From a virus (taxonomy: Duplodnaviria > Heunggongvirae > Uroviricota > Caudoviricetes), in the IMG/VR virus record IMGVR_UViG_2675903606_000019, positions 1 to 11,135 of that record: a DNA stretch of 11,135 nt; one strand, given 5' to 3'. Shown one piece after another: positions 3,184 through 11,135 of this stretch (the first letter of the stretch is position 1; every line of letters begins with the position of its first letter). Both the position numbers and the translations under genes were made by a program. The notes below the pieces were generated by a model that was given only the letters and a program-made list of their open reading frames with translations, was not told the DNA's origin and did no database searches.

Positions 3184-3483
3184 ATGAGAACATATTTATC
3201 TGGCTTGACTGCCAGCGGTTATGCACACCCAAAAATTATCCCCGGCGCTATTTATCTGGATAAGAACGGTAACAGAGTAACGGTAAAAGAACTGATGTTT
3301 GACCGTGTTTATTTTATCCGTGATGGATATTCATTTCTTAGTTCGCTGAACGTGGAGATCTTTATTTGCAGATTCCGGCGGGAAATCCCGACTTCCAGAA
3401 ATAACCATGTGTCACGTGTGGATGTGGATAAAAAACTACAGGAACTGAAAAACATGATTGCCGCGTGGAGAGAGCAGAAATGA
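3184..3483 (+). CDS. Hypothetical protein (99 aa), AT-rich cargo-like gene
   Basis: Track ORF MRTYLSGLTASGYAHPKIIPGAIYLDKNGNRVTVKELMFDRVYFIRDGYSF... RBS GGGGA upstream. Its stop TGA (3481-3483) overlaps the ATG (3480-3482) of the primase gene (ATGA coupling). Confidence 0.65.
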   Translation: MRTYLSGLTASGYAHPKIIPGAIYLDKNGNRVTVKELMFDRVYFIRDGYSFLSSLNVEIFICRFRREIPTSRNNHVSRVDVDKKLQELKNMIAAWREQK

Positions 3484-5603
3484 AAAAAGCGCCAAATTTA
3501 AAACACCAGCCGCGTGACAAAATGACGGAAGTCATCATTTTTGCGGGTAGTGATGCGTGGGCACATGCGAAGCAGTGGCAGGAACAGGACGGGCGACTGG
3601 CTGGCGACAGCGTGCCTCCTGTCTGGCTTGGAGAGCAACAACTTGCCGAACTGGATAAGCTGCAAATTGTGCCGGAAGGCCGAAAATCAGTACGCATATT
3701 CAGGGCCGGACATCTTGAGCCAGTAATGATCAAGGCGATTGGTCAGAAGCTGGCGGCGGCAGGCGTACAGGATGCAAATTTTTACCCTGATGGAATGCAC
3801 GGTCAGGAGGTGGAGAACTGGCGCGAATATCTAGCCCGTGAGCGGCAGAATCTTTCTGATGGTCTGGTTATTGAGTTTCCGGTAAAGAAAAAAGATACCG
3901 GAAGCCATAGCGATGACGAATTAAAGCCACGCGTTGAAAGTCGCGCCGATGGTGTTTTCTGGGTAACGCCCAAAGTGGATAAGCAGTCAGGCGAAATTAT
4001 CCGGCCTGAGACGTGGTTATGTTCTCCGCTTGAACTACTGGGAACGGGGACGATCGGTAAAGAGCATTACCGCGTGATGCGCTGGAAAAAAACCGCAAAC
4101 CATGAAGTCATCACAATGGCGATCCCGTGTGGTGGTATCGGCGACCGTGACGGCTGGCGGTTACTTAAAGATCACGGGCTGAACGTGACAACCAACGGCA
4201 AATACAGGGCAATCCTGGCGGACTGGATGCAGTTAAGCGGAAGCCATGAGGAATGGCAGTTAAGCACAACAACGGGCTGGCATTTTGGCGCGTACATCAT
4301 GCCGGACGGTTCGATCATTGGTGAATCTGAAAAACCGATCCTGTTTACCGGAAAAAGCGCCGCGATTAACGGTTATTCCGTGGCGGGCACGGCGGATGGC
4401 TGGCGCGACAGCGTGGCGCGGCTGGCTGGCGGTAATGCCTCAATGATGCTGGGTGTGGCAACGTCACTGGCAGCGCCTTTAATTGGCCTTGTGGGTGCTG
4501 ACGGCTTCGGGGTGCATCTTTTCGAACAGTCATCGGCAGGTAAGACCACCACGCAGAACATCGCATCAAGTTTATGGGGAGAGCCGGACGCGCAGCGGCT
4601 GACCTGGTACGGCACGGCGTTAGGTATTGCCAATGAGGCCGAGGCCCATAATGACGGGCTTTTACCACTGGATGAGATAGGCCAGGCCGGAAATGCGCGG
4701 GAAGTGTCAACGTCTGCTTATACGCTGTTTAACGGTTCAGGGAAATTGCAGGGGGCGAAGGATGGCGGCAACAGGGAGATCAAACACTGGCGAACGGTGG
4801 CAATCAGCACCGGAGAAATGGACGTTGAGACATTCCTCAAAAGTGAGGGGATAAAAGTTAAGGCGGGGCAGCTTGTCCGACTGCTTAACGTTCCGATGGA
4901 AAAAGCCACGAAATTTCACGAATACAGCAACGGTAAGGAACATGCTGACGCGTTAAAGGATGCCTGGACAGCAAATCACGGGGCGGCGGGTCGTGAGTGG
5001 GTTAAATGGCTGGCAGGCCACCAGCAGGAGGCAAAGGATACGGTAAGGGAATGCCGCGAACGGTGGCGCAACCTGATACCGGAGAGCTACGGCGAGCAGG
5101 TCCACCGCGTGGGTGAACGTTTCGCCATACTGGAGGCCGCGCTTGTGCTTTCCGGTCATGTAACTGGCTGGGTCGTGCAGGAATGCCGCGACGCGATACA
5201 GCATAACTTTAATGCCTGGGTGAAGGAGTTCGGCACGGGTAACAGGGAATTTAAACAGATGGTTGAACAGGCTGAGGCGTTTTTGTCGTCGTTTGGGTTT
5301 AGCCGCTACCTTCCGTACCCCAATACAGATGAGCGTGATTTACCGATTAAAGAGCTTGCCGGATACAGAAAAGGGAGCATTCGCAACGAAGATGACGAGA
5401 TGCGCTATTACACGTTCCCGCACGTGTTTGAGAGTGAGATAGCGAAGGGATTTAATCCGGCGCATTTTGCGCGTGCCCTGGATGCTGCCGGAATGCTGGA
5501 GAAGGGAAGCGATCGCCGATACAAAAAAAAGGCGCTGGGCAAGATTGGGGGTAAGCAGCATGTTTTTTACGTGCTGATGTTCCAGCCTGATGATGAAGAT
5601 TAA
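3480..5603 (+). CDS. Replication primase/helicase-type protein (P4 alpha / PICI Pri-Rep-like; NTPase with Walker A motif)
   Basis: About 707 aa (track ORF 3465..5603; the ATG at 3480 with ATGA overlap is preferred, ATG at 3465 or 3522 possible). Contains Walker A-like SSAGKTTT and is followed directly by an iteron array. Size and position match the satellite/prophage primase-helicase class. The exact domain family needs a profile search. Confidence 0.8.
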   Translation: MKKAPNLKHQPRDKMTEVIIFAGSDAWAHAKQWQEQDGRLAGDSVPPVWLGEQQLAELDKLQIVPEGRKSVRIFRAGHLEPVMIKAIGQKLAAAGVQDANFYPDGMHGQEVENWREYLARERQNLSDGLVIEFPVKKKDTGSHSDDELKPRVESRADGVFWVTPKVDKQSGEIIRPETWLCSPLELLGTGTIGKEHYRVMRWKKTANHEVITMAIPCGGIGDRDGWRLLKDHGLNVTTNGKYRAILADWMQLSGSHEEWQLSTTTGWHFGAYIMPDGSIIGESEKPILFTGKSAAINGYSVAGTADGWRDSVARLAGGNASMMLGVATSLAAPLIGLVGADGFGVHLFEQSSAGKTTTQNIASSLWGEPDAQRLTWYGTALGIANEAEAHNDGLLPLDEIGQAGNAREVSTSAYTLFNGSGKLQGAKDGGNREIKHWRTVAISTGEMDVETFLKSEGIKVKAGQLVRLLNVPMEKATKFHEYSNGKEHADALKDAWTANHGAAGREWVKWLAGHQQEAKDTVRECRERWRNLIPESYGEQVHRVGERFAILEAALVLSGHVTGWVVQECRDAIQHNFNAWVKEFGTGNREFKQMVEQAEAFLSSFGFSRYLPYPNTDERDLPIKELAGYRKGSIRNEDDEMRYYTFPHVFESEIAKGFNPAHFARALDAAGMLEKGSDRRYKKKALGKIGGKQHVFYVLMFQPDDED

Positions 5604-5973: not shown

Positions 5974-6225
5974 ATGACCAGAACACGCAGAGACAGAACA
6001 GAGCCAAAATATAAAGCGTTAGACATGACTGAGCACACCTTAAAGGTGGCAATCAGAACGATAGACCGCCACACGCGGGAAGGATACGCGAAGGAACATC
6101 CCGACCTGATAAGCGCATTCATGACCACGGCGGCGGCAAACTTTGCCACGCTGACAGAACGGGAGATTGCCGAAGCGGAACAGGTAACAACCATCAACGT
6201 TAAAACCGGAGAGGTGGAATCATGA
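5974..6225 (+). CDS. Hypothetical protein (83 aa from ATG 5974; the track starts at TTG 5962)
   Basis: RBS GAGG at 5964-5967 precedes ATG 5974. Its stop overlaps the ssb start (ATGA at 6222-6225). No family recognised. Confidence 0.6.
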   Translation: MTRTRRDRTEPKYKALDMTEHTLKVAIRTIDRHTREGYAKEHPDLISAFMTTAAANFATLTEREIAEAEQVTTINVKTGEVES

Positions 6226-6632
6226 CAGCACAGATAGCGGCTTACGGTCGGCTGGTGGACGACCCGCAGGTAAAACAGACCAGCAAGGGCACACCGATGA
6301 CGCTGGCGCGTATGGCGGTATCACTGCCATGCAGTCAGGCACAGGACGGACAGGCGACGTTATGGCTATCGGTCATCGCATTTGGTAAGCAGGCCGACTT
6401 CCTGGCTAAACATCAAAAAGGCGACGTTGCCAGCGTATCCGGCACGATGCAGGTAAGCCAGTGGACCGGACAGAACGGGGAGACGCGTCAGGGTTATCAG
6501 GTTATTGCAGACAGCGTAATCAGTGCCCGTGCGGCACGTCCTGGCGGGAACAGACGCAAAACCACAGGCGCACAGGGTAATCAGCCACCAGCGGGAGGCG
6601 ATGACCCTTACGGTGATGATATTCCGTTCTGA
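6222..6632 (+). CDS. ssb: Single-stranded DNA-binding protein (SSB), short form with canonical acidic C-terminal tip
   Basis: 136 aa. OB-fold-like core (GRLVDDPQV..., W...FGKQADFL..KG..V...G......W....G..R) and C-terminus ending DDPYGDDIPF, matching the conserved SSB DDDIPF tail that recruits partner proteins. Confidence 0.85.
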   Translation: MTAQIAAYGRLVDDPQVKQTSKGTPMTLARMAVSLPCSQAQDGQATLWLSVIAFGKQADFLAKHQKGDVASVSGTMQVSQWTGQNGETRQGYQVIADSVISARAARPGGNRRKTTGAQGNQPPAGGDDPYGDDIPF

Positions 6633-6642
6633 GGGGGTGACG

Positions 6643-6915
6643 ATGGTACATGACCGCATAGCGGAAGAACTCGAAGCGAAAGGATTTTACCGGAGGGCGG
6701 CGGCGCGATGGGGTGAAGTCATGATGCTGGTGGAGACAGACAAGGAACGGCATCACATCACGATGCGACGGCTGGAATGTTCCAGGAAGGCACAGAGGCC
6801 ACCGGAGCCGCCGGATAACTTCGGAGACCTGAGAAAGGCAGTCGATCGCACTTATGCTGAAATGGGTATAGATGGTGTAAGCGATGAAATATGGCGTAAT
6901 TACCCAGGCAGCTAA
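6643..6915 (+). CDS. PerC-like small transcriptional regulator (90 aa)
   Basis: ATG at 6643 with RBS GAGGGGG 5 nt upstream (the track ORF 6523..6915 is in frame but its 5' part overlaps ssb). Motif EELEAKGFYRRAAARWGEVMM resembles the PerC-family signature (G-[FW]-[WY]-RRAA-x-RW) as I recall it. Confidence 0.55.
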   Translation: MVHDRIAEELEAKGFYRRAAARWGEVMMLVETDKERHHITMRRLECSRKAQRPPEPPDNFGDLRKAVDRTYAEMGIDGVSDEIWRNYPGS

Positions 6916-9220: not shown

Positions 9221-9298
9221 ACGGGTCCTTTCCGGCATATGGACCCGTTACGGGGCGGCGACCTCGCGGTTTTTCGCTATTTATGAGCCTTTTCAGGG
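9221..9298. other. Lambda-type cos site (cosQ-like, cosN 12-nt cohesive end GGGCGGCGACCT at 9253-9264, start of cosB)
   Basis: ACGGGTCCTTTCCGG...GTTACG-GGGCGGCGACCT-CGCGGTTTTTCGCTATTTATGA closely matches the right and left termini of phage lambda as I recall them (right end ...ACGGGTCCTTTCCGGTGATCCGACAGGTTACG, left end GGGCGGCGACCTCGCGGGTTTTCGCTATTTATGA...). Sequence diverges from lambda after about 9298. Confidence 0.8.
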
Positions 9299-9397: not shown

Positions 9398-9940
9398 ATG
9401 AAATCGCACCTGATGAACAAAAAAAACATGGCGAAAAGCTGCCGTGTAAGTGCGACAGCGTTCGACAAGTGGGGAGTGACTCCCGTTGAACGTAAAGGCC
9501 GTGAGGCGTTTTACGATGTTGCCAGCGTGATAGACAATAGGGTTAACAATGCAATTAGCCAGCTTACAAACGACAAAGGCGATATTGATGATGATGAACT
9601 CTTACGAGTCAGGATCAGATTACTGACAGCACAGGCGGAGGCGCAGGAACTTAAAAACGAGCGCGATCGCGGTGACGTGATCGATACTGAGTTTTGCCTG
9701 TACGCGCTTTCAAAGCTGGCGAGTCAGATTTCATCAATCATGGACAGCCTCCCGCTTACTATGCAAAGGAGCTTCCCACAGATTACCCCCGCCATGCTGG
9801 ATAGGCTTAAAAGGGAAGTGGTTAAAGCCTGTAATGCCAGTGCCAGAGTTGCCGACAACCTCCCACAGATACTGGCTGATTACTTGAAAGAAACAACCGG
9901 AAACGTACCGGAAAAGTTGCAGCCGAATAAAGATAAGTAA
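9398..9940 (+). CDS. Terminase small subunit, lambda Nu1 family
   Basis: 180 aa. C-terminal two thirds align with lambda Nu1 as recalled: RLLTAQAEAQELKNERDRGDVIDTEFCLYALSKLASQISSIMDSLPLTMQRSFPQ (lambda RLTRAQADAQELKNARDSAEVVETAFCTFVLSRIAGEIASILDGLPLSVQRRFPE). N-terminal region is more divergent but still shows NKK...W...G.PV.R.G....YD.A.VI. Confidence 0.85.
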   Translation: MKSHLMNKKNMAKSCRVSATAFDKWGVTPVERKGREAFYDVASVIDNRVNNAISQLTNDKGDIDDDELLRVRIRLLTAQAEAQELKNERDRGDVIDTEFCLYALSKLASQISSIMDSLPLTMQRSFPQITPAMLDRLKREVVKACNASARVADNLPQILADYLKETTGNVPEKLQPNKDK

Positions 9941-10233: not shown

Positions 10234-10526
10234 CTGGTTGATATTCCCGACGGACCAAAAATGGGTGGCTACATCCCTCGCTTCTGAGGACTGTTAACAA
10301 GCTGCCTGAAAGACAGTCACAAACTACGAAATTTTCGCAGTTTAATTAATGATCAGCTTAATCGCTAACCCGCTGATATTTTCGGAAACCTCAATTTGAG
10401 GAAGTCGGCGCGGTAACTCGCTGAACTTTAAGCAAAGCGCAAAATTGCGCTTGCTGAATAATCATTATGATTACGCAGATGATTAAGGAATGACCGAAGG
10501 CGGAAATTCGCCTGTGGTTAATGGGG

Positions 10527-10546
10527 GAGTTGCAGATCTGCAACTC
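10527..10546. repeat. Perfect 20-bp palindrome GAGTTGCAGATCTGCAACTC
   Basis: Read directly from the sequence. A perfect 20-bp palindrome is very unlikely by chance in 11 kb. Confidence 0.7.
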
Positions 10547-10552
10547 GACCAT

Positions 10553-10639
10553 GAAACTACGGAAACTACCCGTAGTTTGGGTAGTAAGAGTAACACCCAG
10601 ATTTTGGGTCTTACTCGTGATACCCAAATTTGGGGTATC
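10553..10639. repeat. Half-site array (AAACTAC x2, then GTAGTTT and a partial GGGTAGT) followed by two adjacent stable hairpins / palindromic sites
   Basis: AAACTAC at 10554-10560 and 10563-10569, GTAGTTT at 10572-10578, partial copy at 10579-10585. Hairpin GAGTAA-c-ACCCA-gattt-TGGGT-c-TTACTC (10588-10616). Hairpin GATACCC-aaatttg-GGGTATC (10619-10639). The two ACCCA...GGGT units are direct repeats of a palindromic site about 27 bp apart. Confidence 0.55.
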
Positions 10640-10902
10640 AGTGGCAACCATAACGACTTTCGTTACGGTTGATGCTTTTACCCCATTGGGGGAAAGGTAT
10701 TACGATAATCATAACACCTACCGAACAGGTAAAGCCCACCAGCCTGATTAACGTTTAACCGGAAAAAAATTCCGGTAGGTGGGGATCCCCATATCGACAT
10801 TAACGCCCCTCATGAATTGGTGCGCTTCCCCCTGGAAAGATGATCCGCCTGTATATTTCTTGTGTCTATTTGTTCCACGTTGTTTCATACAGTGCACCGA
10901 AC

Positions 10903-10924
10903 GGTGTAGTCACTGGTGTAGTCA
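10903..10924. repeat. Tandem direct repeat GGTGTAGTCA x2 (12-bp period) near the right junction; candidate integrase arm-type sites
   Basis: GGTGTAGTCA at 10903-10912 and 10915-10924, followed by TTTTGCG repeats at about 10924-10950. About 75 bp inside the proposed junction. Confidence 0.4.
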
Positions 10925-10976
10925 TTTTGCGATTTTTGGCACTTTTTGCGGTGAAAATTATTTAATTAAATCAACG

Positions 10977-11135
10977 TGTTATGTGAAATAAGTTATATAT
11001 AACAGCAATAAATAATGCGAGAATAAACGGCACGATGATCTCGGTGGCAAAACGGATACCGCAGAGAATAATGACCAGCATTCCCAACATAATGACGATT
11101 TTTAGGCCATTGAGCGTGATGATCGGCTTTGCCAT
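10977..11135 (-). pseudogene. tqsA: Truncated 5' fragment of a tqsA-like (AI-2 exporter family) membrane protein gene; likely chromosomal flank interrupted by the element
   Basis: Minus-strand ORF of 52 codons, [52 protein letters not shown], then TAA. The first 46 or so residues match the N-terminus of E. coli TqsA/YdgG as I recall it; the reading frame then diverges and stops, where the native protein continues for about 300 more residues. Confidence 0.55.

Follow-up and report, generated by a model that had tools for sequence, protein, structure and literature searches.

The right end of the window (the whole stretch of DNA analysed, 11,135 nucleotides) raises the question of how the beginning of a host transporter gene, tqsA, came to run into island-like DNA, and which enzyme and sites could have joined the two. 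The window spans from the ATG of an integrase gene on the + strand (1-1218) to the ATG of a tqsA fragment on the - strand (10971-11135). The reading favoured here, with a probability of roughly 0.88, is that positions 10853-11007 represent the attR P arm and core of an approximately 11-kb EcCICFT073-type PICI, inserted by its P4-like integrase (1-1218) in codons 44-46 of tqsA.

The - strand ORF at 10971-11135 was originally given as 52 codons; its actual length is 54 codons plus a stop. Its resemblance to the N-terminus of TqsA was correctly recognized: residues 1-46 are those of E. coli TqsA 1-46 except for A31T (46 residues aligned), and residues 47-54 (YNLFHITR) are island-coded and unrelated to TqsA, making a hybrid ORF. 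The chromosomal part, codons 1-46 of the tqsA 5' fragment with the core, lies at 11008-11135 on the - strand, and over 10999-11135 the window is 99.3% identical to uninterrupted tqsA, an identity that holds across thousands of genomes. With 10700-11135 as a megablast query, matches were found in 5,423 of 5,426 complete E. coli genomes, and in most of the matching genomes uninterrupted tqsA aligns only to window positions 10999-11135. The junction itself, counted as present when at least 80% of the 436-base query was found, occurs in 233 of the 5,426. That the short ORF is a native small gene, with a mistaken likeness to tqsA, has next to no probability. It is ruled out by the genome matches, by the residue alignment, in which all 46 positions apart from A31T agree, by the intact 344-aa tqsA gene in about 95% of complete E. 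coli genomes, and by the presence of the full-length gene in the same mdtJ-side context of uninterrupted genomes; PGAP likewise labels the fragment 'pheromone autoinducer 2 transporter, incomplete'.

The junction was resolved by comparing the window with an uninterrupted locus (L002) and with both island ends of strain RM10466 (L003), the closest complete-genome island used for this purpose. The cut-off had been placed near 10995-11000, and homology to tqsA does end at 10999, where a 9-bp identity block, ATAACAGCA, begins (10999-11007). This block is the crossover core that alignment to uninterrupted tqsA had been expected to expose. The attB of the uninterrupted locus reads GTTAAGA-ATAACAGCA-ATAAATA, the attL of RM10466 reads GTTAAGA-ATAACAGCA-TTTTATC, and the attR of the window reads GTTATAT-ATAACAGCA-ATAAATA. 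The 9 bp are common to attR, attL, attB and attP, with the crossover inside them, and the comparison supports the break in tqsA as a site-specific recombination junction. Within the block, the 7-bp overlap is placed at AACAGCA (11001-11007), directly left of a conserved C' site, TTTTATCA, in attL and attP; this register gives identical arm-to-centre distances in three att families. The partner site C on the island side is probably TTATATAT (10993-11000, + strand), from inverted repeats in sister attPs. The roxA-phoQ attP contains a perfect inverted repeat, TGATAAAA-GGACATA-TTTTATCA, and the cspD-clpS attP, found in a contig (L103) of a sister island using that site, reads TTATAAAT-GATAGTT-ATTTATCA. 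Because these two attPs support the register, TTATATAT and AACAGCA were assigned as C and overlap at tqsA. The core-type sites are AT-rich and weakly defined, and the exact limits of the overlap are putative.

The remaining part of tqsA and a matching core repeat had been expected beyond the left edge of the window, upstream of int, and both were found there in related islands. In RM10466 and JNE131328, which carry 93-94%-identical islands, the island is bordered by the 3' part of tqsA to its left and by the 5' part to its right: a fragment labelled 'missing N-terminus' adjoins pntB, and one labelled 'missing C-terminus' adjoins ydgV/mdtJ. A protein identical to the window integrase is indexed in 1,623 blocks of an assembly collection and, among the matches listed, stands beside a tqsA remnant and pntB/pntA in 8 of 8 places. 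In 10 of 10 loci with an identical or 94%-identical integrase, the int ATG is preceded by the core at a distance of 196 bp, and the 3' part of tqsA with the matching core just beyond int was likewise present in 10 of 10 loci, as well as in further IMG/VR loci. The attL of the window copy, whose left flank falls outside the window, is taken by extension from these relatives to be the same. When attL and attR of RM10466 were joined in silico, a 344-aa TqsA was obtained with 345 of 345 codons identical, stop included; joining the attL of another locus (L007) to the attR of the window gave 344 of 345. The transporter gene is disrupted as predicted, with the break in tqsA and two in-frame stops preceding the junction at attL, and therefore no replacement N-terminus is supplied by the island.

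A related island also occurs as a closed molecule. An IMG/VR metagenome contig of 11,098 bp (L131, IMGVR_UViG_3300045988_152974) has a perfect 119-bp terminal overlap and therefore represents a 10,979-bp circle. Its layout is P arm-GTTATATATAACAGCA-TTTTATCA-P' arm-int (the central part can also be written GTTATATATAACAGCA-TTTTATCATTTAG). Window position 1 corresponds to L131 position 307, and the right end of the window aligns to this contig only up to 11007, beyond which the contig runs into the P' arm and int. Judged by its sequence, L131 is a captured excised or packaged form of a tqsA-type island and carries the predicted attP, L103 being its counterpart for the cspD-clpS-type island; for the window island itself the predicted attP junction sequence is GTTATATATAACAGCATTTTATCA. 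These observations bear on whether the window copy could instead be a fixed, immobile remnant beside a dead tqsA pseudogene, with an att site that no longer works. The private A31T change in the tqsA fragment, the lack of an identical full-length island on record and the position of the copy's own attL outside the window are compatible with such a remnant. Decay is improbable, however, given that int is intact and encodes the protein indexed in 1,623 blocks, that open reading frames or sites remain for alpA, the primase, cosN and the late genes, that PCN033 has a P arm and core 99.8% identical to the window's, and that a close relative exists as a circular excised molecule. A recombination site of a mobile island remains the preferred reading.

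A site of this kind would be expected to carry arm-type repeats, and the P arm contains a doubled motif, GGTGTAGTCAcTGGTGTAGTCA, at 10903-10924 on the + strand with a 12-bp period. Exact copies of GGTGTAGTCA lie 12 bp apart at 10903-10912 and 10915-10924, and only 0.31 chance matches to GGTGTAGTCA would be expected across the whole window with up to one mismatch allowed. Each arm has a single copy of the doubled motif, and no further copy was seen in 12 loci. The second, co-oriented doubled motif (GGTGTAGTCAC x2) lies 47-59 bp upstream of int in relatives, outside the window. Relative to the centre of the overlap, the P motif starts 100-101 bp and ends 78-79 bp to the left, a distance that is constant in eight attR junctions (the window and seven loci at the tqsA, roxA-phoQ and cspD-clpS sites), and the P' motif starts exactly 132 bp to the right in tqsA, roxA-phoQ and cspD-clpS islands. 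Both doubled motifs sit within a larger repeat: a P-arm block of about 75 nt (10853-10928, + strand; L003 14791-14866) repeats a block just upstream of int, outside the window, so that 75-76 nt are directly repeated at both island ends with 76% identity, as the second-ranked direct-repeat family (D2) in L003 and the top-ranked one (D1) in L013. The original prediction had proposed two sets of repeats as candidate integrase arm sites. The doubled GGTGTAGTCA stands, since with a second co-oriented pair upstream of int at a fixed distance and an Arm-DNA-bind_3 domain in the integrase it appears to behave as an arm-type site. The TTTTGCG repeats were rejected: they are present (10925-10931 and 10944-10950), but the heptamer is common, with 11 copies in the window against an expectation of 4.2, and the corresponding arms of related islands do not conserve it.

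Further elements of the arms were delimited by alignment of four P arms and seven P' arms, which show no variation in the motif core, in a series of TTGT motifs with 10-bp phasing or in an ATCAA element. Conservation in the P' arm alignment ends exactly at the overlap, and the 30 bp adjoining the core diverge between att families. In the window, three phased TTGT motifs, TTGTGTCT, TTGTTCCA and TTGTTTCA, were read from the sequence at 10860-10887 (+ strand), with columns partly invariant across four att families; three to four copies lie directly upstream of the doubled motif in both arms (P' arm: L007 9890-9930). In islands of the cspD and rcnR types, whose AlpA or integrase is a different one, the motif becomes TTGTTCG. 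The phased motifs are candidate sites for AlpA or a directionality factor (RDF), or bent DNA. Between the arm sites and the core, an IHF-consensus match, AATCAACGTGTTA, is located at 10969-10981 (+ strand) with an A/T tract before it. The pattern used, WATCAANNNNTTR, matches twice in the window against 0.56 expected, and 22 of 200 shuffles give at least two matches; the ATCAA element is invariant in four att families. This consensus match may mark an IHF site. Scanning of the attL/P' arm revealed no consensus sigma-70 promoter upstream of int, and therefore no claim is made on int autoregulation.

The enzyme that would use these sites is a tyrosine integrase of 405 aa with a P4-like architecture (1-1218, + strand). 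Both of its Pfam domains score above the curated cut-offs (Arm-DNA-bind_3, 1.3e-18, 67 bits; Phage_integrase, 1.4e-16, 61 bits), and the protein combines an N-terminal arm-binding domain with a C-terminal tyrosine recombinase catalytic domain, in an island that has repeated arm-type sites distant from the core on both sides. The doubled motifs are very probably integrase arm sites, because their fixed distances across three att families match the P4 attP and the published HE-PICI geometry. It is possible, as an unlikely alternative to which we give a small share of the probability, that the junction is as described but that AlpA or some other accessory protein, for instance an excisionase, binds the doubled GGTGTAGTCA in place of the integrase arm domain. 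Directionality factors are known in the AlpA family, and Tommasini et al. leave open what binds the analogous HE-PICI motif (PMC10111431). Yet the integrase has a dedicated arm-binding domain, P4 shows the same layout, with its tandem 12-bp units entered in the record as attP arm repeats, and the 10-bp-phased TTGT motifs beside the doubled motif are better candidates for an accessory protein. Variation in the motif also bears on the choice. The motif core is invariant across integrases 74-100% identical and changes, to TGTGTGGTCA x2, only with the 67%-identical rcnR-site integrase, in which a strand of the N-domain also differs; the AlpA proteins of islands with GTCAC and with GTTAA arm motifs are 100% identical. 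Because AlpA is constant across variants and the motif core changes with the rcnR-site integrase, the integrase is favoured as the protein that would bind the motif.

A finer correspondence between motif and integrase was considered and downgraded. In every P' arm seen, GTCAC accompanies KYLTSGK and GTTAA accompanies RHSTSGL in a strand of the integrase N-domain. A recombinant island at the roxA-phoQ site (L048/L112, IMGVR_UViG_2859821903_000003) appeared to offer a natural domain swap: integrase residues 1-40 are tqsA-type and residues 52-310 mostly roxA-type, so that the N-domain and P' arm are of the tqsA type and the catalytic region, target site and P arm of the roxA type. Pattern scans, however, gave the other variant in the distal P arm of this island (GTTAA and GTCAA, against GTCAC x2 in the P' arm). 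As N-domain and P arm are of different types here, the correspondence is not strict, a point that favours an accessory protein as binder. Since the P' arm is also physically linked to the 5' end of int, the co-variation was regarded as confounded by linkage. Motif positions 9-11 may be neutral, and the same island suggests that target choice maps to integrase residues 52-310.

By gene content, the island is an EcCICFT073-type PICI, for which helper dependence is predicted. The int and alpA genes stand at one end, co-oriented with a primase/replication module, in an element within the size range of about 10-20 kb that has a partial set of phage late genes and lacks tail and lysis genes. Adding the 196-bp P' arm of relatives to the 10,998 bp up to the core, its length would be about 11.2 kb. 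The AlpA-family regulator (62 aa, 1593-1781, + strand; Phage_AlpA, 5e-18) is, by analogy with the PICI literature, a probable excision/directionality factor and PICI activator. Pfam domains further identify DUF4222 (3184-3483), a DUF927 primase-like protein (3480-5603), an SSB (6222-6632) and PerC (6643-6915). The only late genes recognized by Pfam are Phage_cap_E (lambda gpE-type capsid), HDPD (gpD-type decoration) and Phage_Nu1, and no portal, TerL, tail or lysis domain was detected among window ORFs of at least 90 aa. An exact lambda cosN cohesive-end 12-mer, GGGCGGCGACCT, occurs at 9253-9264, some 130 bp before the start of the Nu1-like gene (9398-9940), where a PICI packaged through cos would be expected to have it. 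A search for Rpp homologues against the PDB returned no match for the 180-aa Nu1-like protein and a neighbouring 137-aa protein, and two non-significant DARPin matches (E 0.21 and 0.92) for the other neighbour, of 93 aa.

This exact mosaic was absent from the database records, the best complete-genome match having 85% coverage and 93.6% identity. Islands with the identical integrase have either this late zone or, as in the cf-PICI type, a full HK97-type capsid/terminase set. No record was found of the primase with its GTG start; with an ATG start it is found in islands at three different att sites, none identical to the window. By these comparisons, the modules of the island are freely exchanged. 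A scan of genome contigs with the integrase detected one Shigella locus only.

No Rfam family was found in the window, and the non-coding stretch at 10240-10900 gave no match in phage genomes. Four consecutive strong hairpins are present at 10510-10695, with predicted RNA folds of -89.3 kcal/mol (z = -9.2) on the + strand and -81.3 kcal/mol (z = -9.0) on the - strand. This element, without an Rfam family or phage match, recurs with 96-100% identity in sister islands inserted at other att sites and is modular, in that hairpins 1-3 and hairpin 4 occur separately. Of 5,426 E. coli genomes, 1,132 have some part of it, either without annotation or as a predicted 52-aa hypothetical protein. On the left side of the window, a 341-codon ORF of odd composition (1839-2864, + strand) occupies a position at which sister islands have small - strand genes (YlcI/YnfO), Icd-like fragments or pseudogenes; it may be spurious or a fused variable-zone gene.

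The clade to which this integrase belongs has been observed at no fewer than seven target sites, namely tqsA, yifB/comM, roxA-phoQ, abgR, cspD-clpS, rcnR and a prophage DUF968 gene. The last was seen in L040 (positions 1-700; IMGVR_UViG_2671180417_000010), in which an island whose tqsA-type integrase has four amino acid differences is inserted in the DUF968 gene of a lambdoid prophage and not in tqsA, at a site that shares AATAACAGCA. Judged by this sequence, the DUF968 gene is an off-target or secondary site, and the arrangement resembles helper-embedded PICIs. In E. coli NCCP 13717 (L018, positions 600-1000), a sister island whose integrase is 87% identical and which has the same GTCAC arm motif splits a Mg-chelatase-domain gene beside ilvL (yifB/comM). 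The yifB gene is also on the published gene-integrity list (Mageeney et al. 2020, PMC7192596).

These elements can be combined in a proposed scheme for integration. The N-terminal arm-binding domains of the integrase would bind the two co-oriented doubled 12-bp motifs, one of them GGTGTAGTCA x2 starting 101 bp left of the crossover and the other starting 132 bp to its right, shortly before int. The imperfect inverted core sites around the 7-bp overlap would be bound by the catalytic and core-binding domains. Bending of the IHF type at 10969-10981 would probably allow a single integrase to span arm and core, and strand exchange within the overlap would join attP to tqsA. Integration would split TqsA in the middle of helix H2 and detach the H1 pentamer contact, leaving the gene inactivated and unrepaired, and excision, probably assisted by AlpA, would rebuild tqsA exactly. 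In the cryo-EM structure of TqsA, H1 (residues 7-29) forms the main cytoplasmic pentamer contact and H2 comprises residues 31-57 (PMC9475539). The break falls after Ile46, so that H1 and half of H2 are cut off from the remainder of TqsA. Gene callers predict a tqsA product of at most 291 aa, which by its length starts at Met54. Loss of TqsA function in carriers is likely on these grounds.

The locus also has several features of regulated gene integrity. The coding sequence is disrupted and unrestored, with eight foreign residues and a stop following Ile46 at attR. Many interrupted and uninterrupted alleles exist at one position, with the same core in all loci. Precise excision in silico returns all 345 codons, and an excised circle with the predicted attP exists. 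Cargo differs among the tqsA islands, a sign of independent acquisitions or of extensive recombination. About 4% of complete E. coli genomes have such an island, which would inactivate the sole dedicated exporter of AI-2 in this species. Export of AI-2 and biofilm behaviour may therefore be altered in carriers and could revert on excision, an idea already in print. It is conceivable, though we consider it doubtful, that the tqsA insertion is a working switch and, jointly, that the integrase clade retargets itself among its target sites. Were this so, helper-phage or SOS-triggered excision would rebuild the AI-2 exporter and couple satellite mobilization to quorum-signal export and biofilm; retargeting would proceed mainly via the 7-bp overlap, the left core site of attP and a few residues between 52 and 310; and the clade would offer a natural model for reprogrammable integration.

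In comparison with known systems, the feature in the window is a textbook-type attR, of a known kind of element in a known target. A first parallel is satellite phage P4, in which the core lies within a tRNA-Leu gene that is restored on integration. The P4 core measures 20 bp and its arm repeat reads TTGGGGGCAT, whereas the window core measures 9 bp and lies inside a protein-coding gene that is left unrestored. As in the window island, the P4 integrase has an arm-type domain, and the P4 record (NC_001609) annotates tandem, co-oriented 12-bp 'attP arm sequence repeats' on both arms, one pair of them 16-39 bp upstream of int. P4 also encodes an AlpA-like protein, ORF88, annotated as 'excisionase and transcriptional regulator'. 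The two integrases share about 22% identity (88/403, local alignment) and the same domain architecture, and are distant relatives. A second parallel is provided by the HE-PICI attP, which has the doubled motif tgTGTATTGCa x2 (Tommasini, Mageeney and Williams 2023, PMC10111431). There too, two co-oriented doubled motifs are found, 81+/-2 bp upstream and 132+/-2 bp downstream of the centre, close to the values of the window clade, in which 78-79 bp lie between the end of the upstream motif and the centre and exactly 132 bp between the centre and the start of the downstream one. The sequence of the motif differs (GGTGTAGTYA in the window clade), and so do the targets, which are chromosomal genes or intergenic sites in the window clade and prophage late genes for HE-PICIs; the HE-PICI motif was stated not to have been found in other PICIs (PMC10111431). 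By gene content the island was likened to EcCICFT073 (Fillol-Salom et al. 2018, 2019; PMC6092414, PMC6739421), with which it has in common int, alpA, the primase and a size of about 11 kb, together with a late zone of lambda gpE-like capsid and gpD-like decoration homologues and a lambda-type cosN.

The target and the switch idea have been published: in the TIGER survey of Mageeney et al. (2020, NAR, PMC7192596), tqsA is among 19 new 'regulated gene integrity' candidates, represented in E. coli by Eco33.11.tqsA, Eco557.15.tqsA and Eco282.16.tqsA. These elements share with the window the host species, target gene and size class (11-16 kb), and are listed there as disrupting the UPF0118/AI-2E domain and leaving it unrestored. 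The survey does not describe the anatomy of the att site, for which arm motif, overlap, putative IHF site and circular form were worked out here. A literature search found no description of the GGTGTAGTYA doubled arm motif of this clade, of its geometry as identical to that of HE-PICI and P4 sites, or of a base-level placement of the overlap at tqsA, and the motif string GGTGTAGT gave only irrelevant matches. The additions are incremental and leave current understanding unchanged. They consist of a base-level att map (overlap, clade-specific arm motif and fixed geometry) and a captured circular form, and both should be useful for annotating PICI boundaries and for testing target switches of related integrases. 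As in the known gene-integrity switches, among them Listeria comK, E. coli mlrA with its Stx prophage and B. subtilis sigK (PMC7192596), a mobile element splits a host gene that precise excision can rebuild, the tqsA case being a candidate for such a switch.
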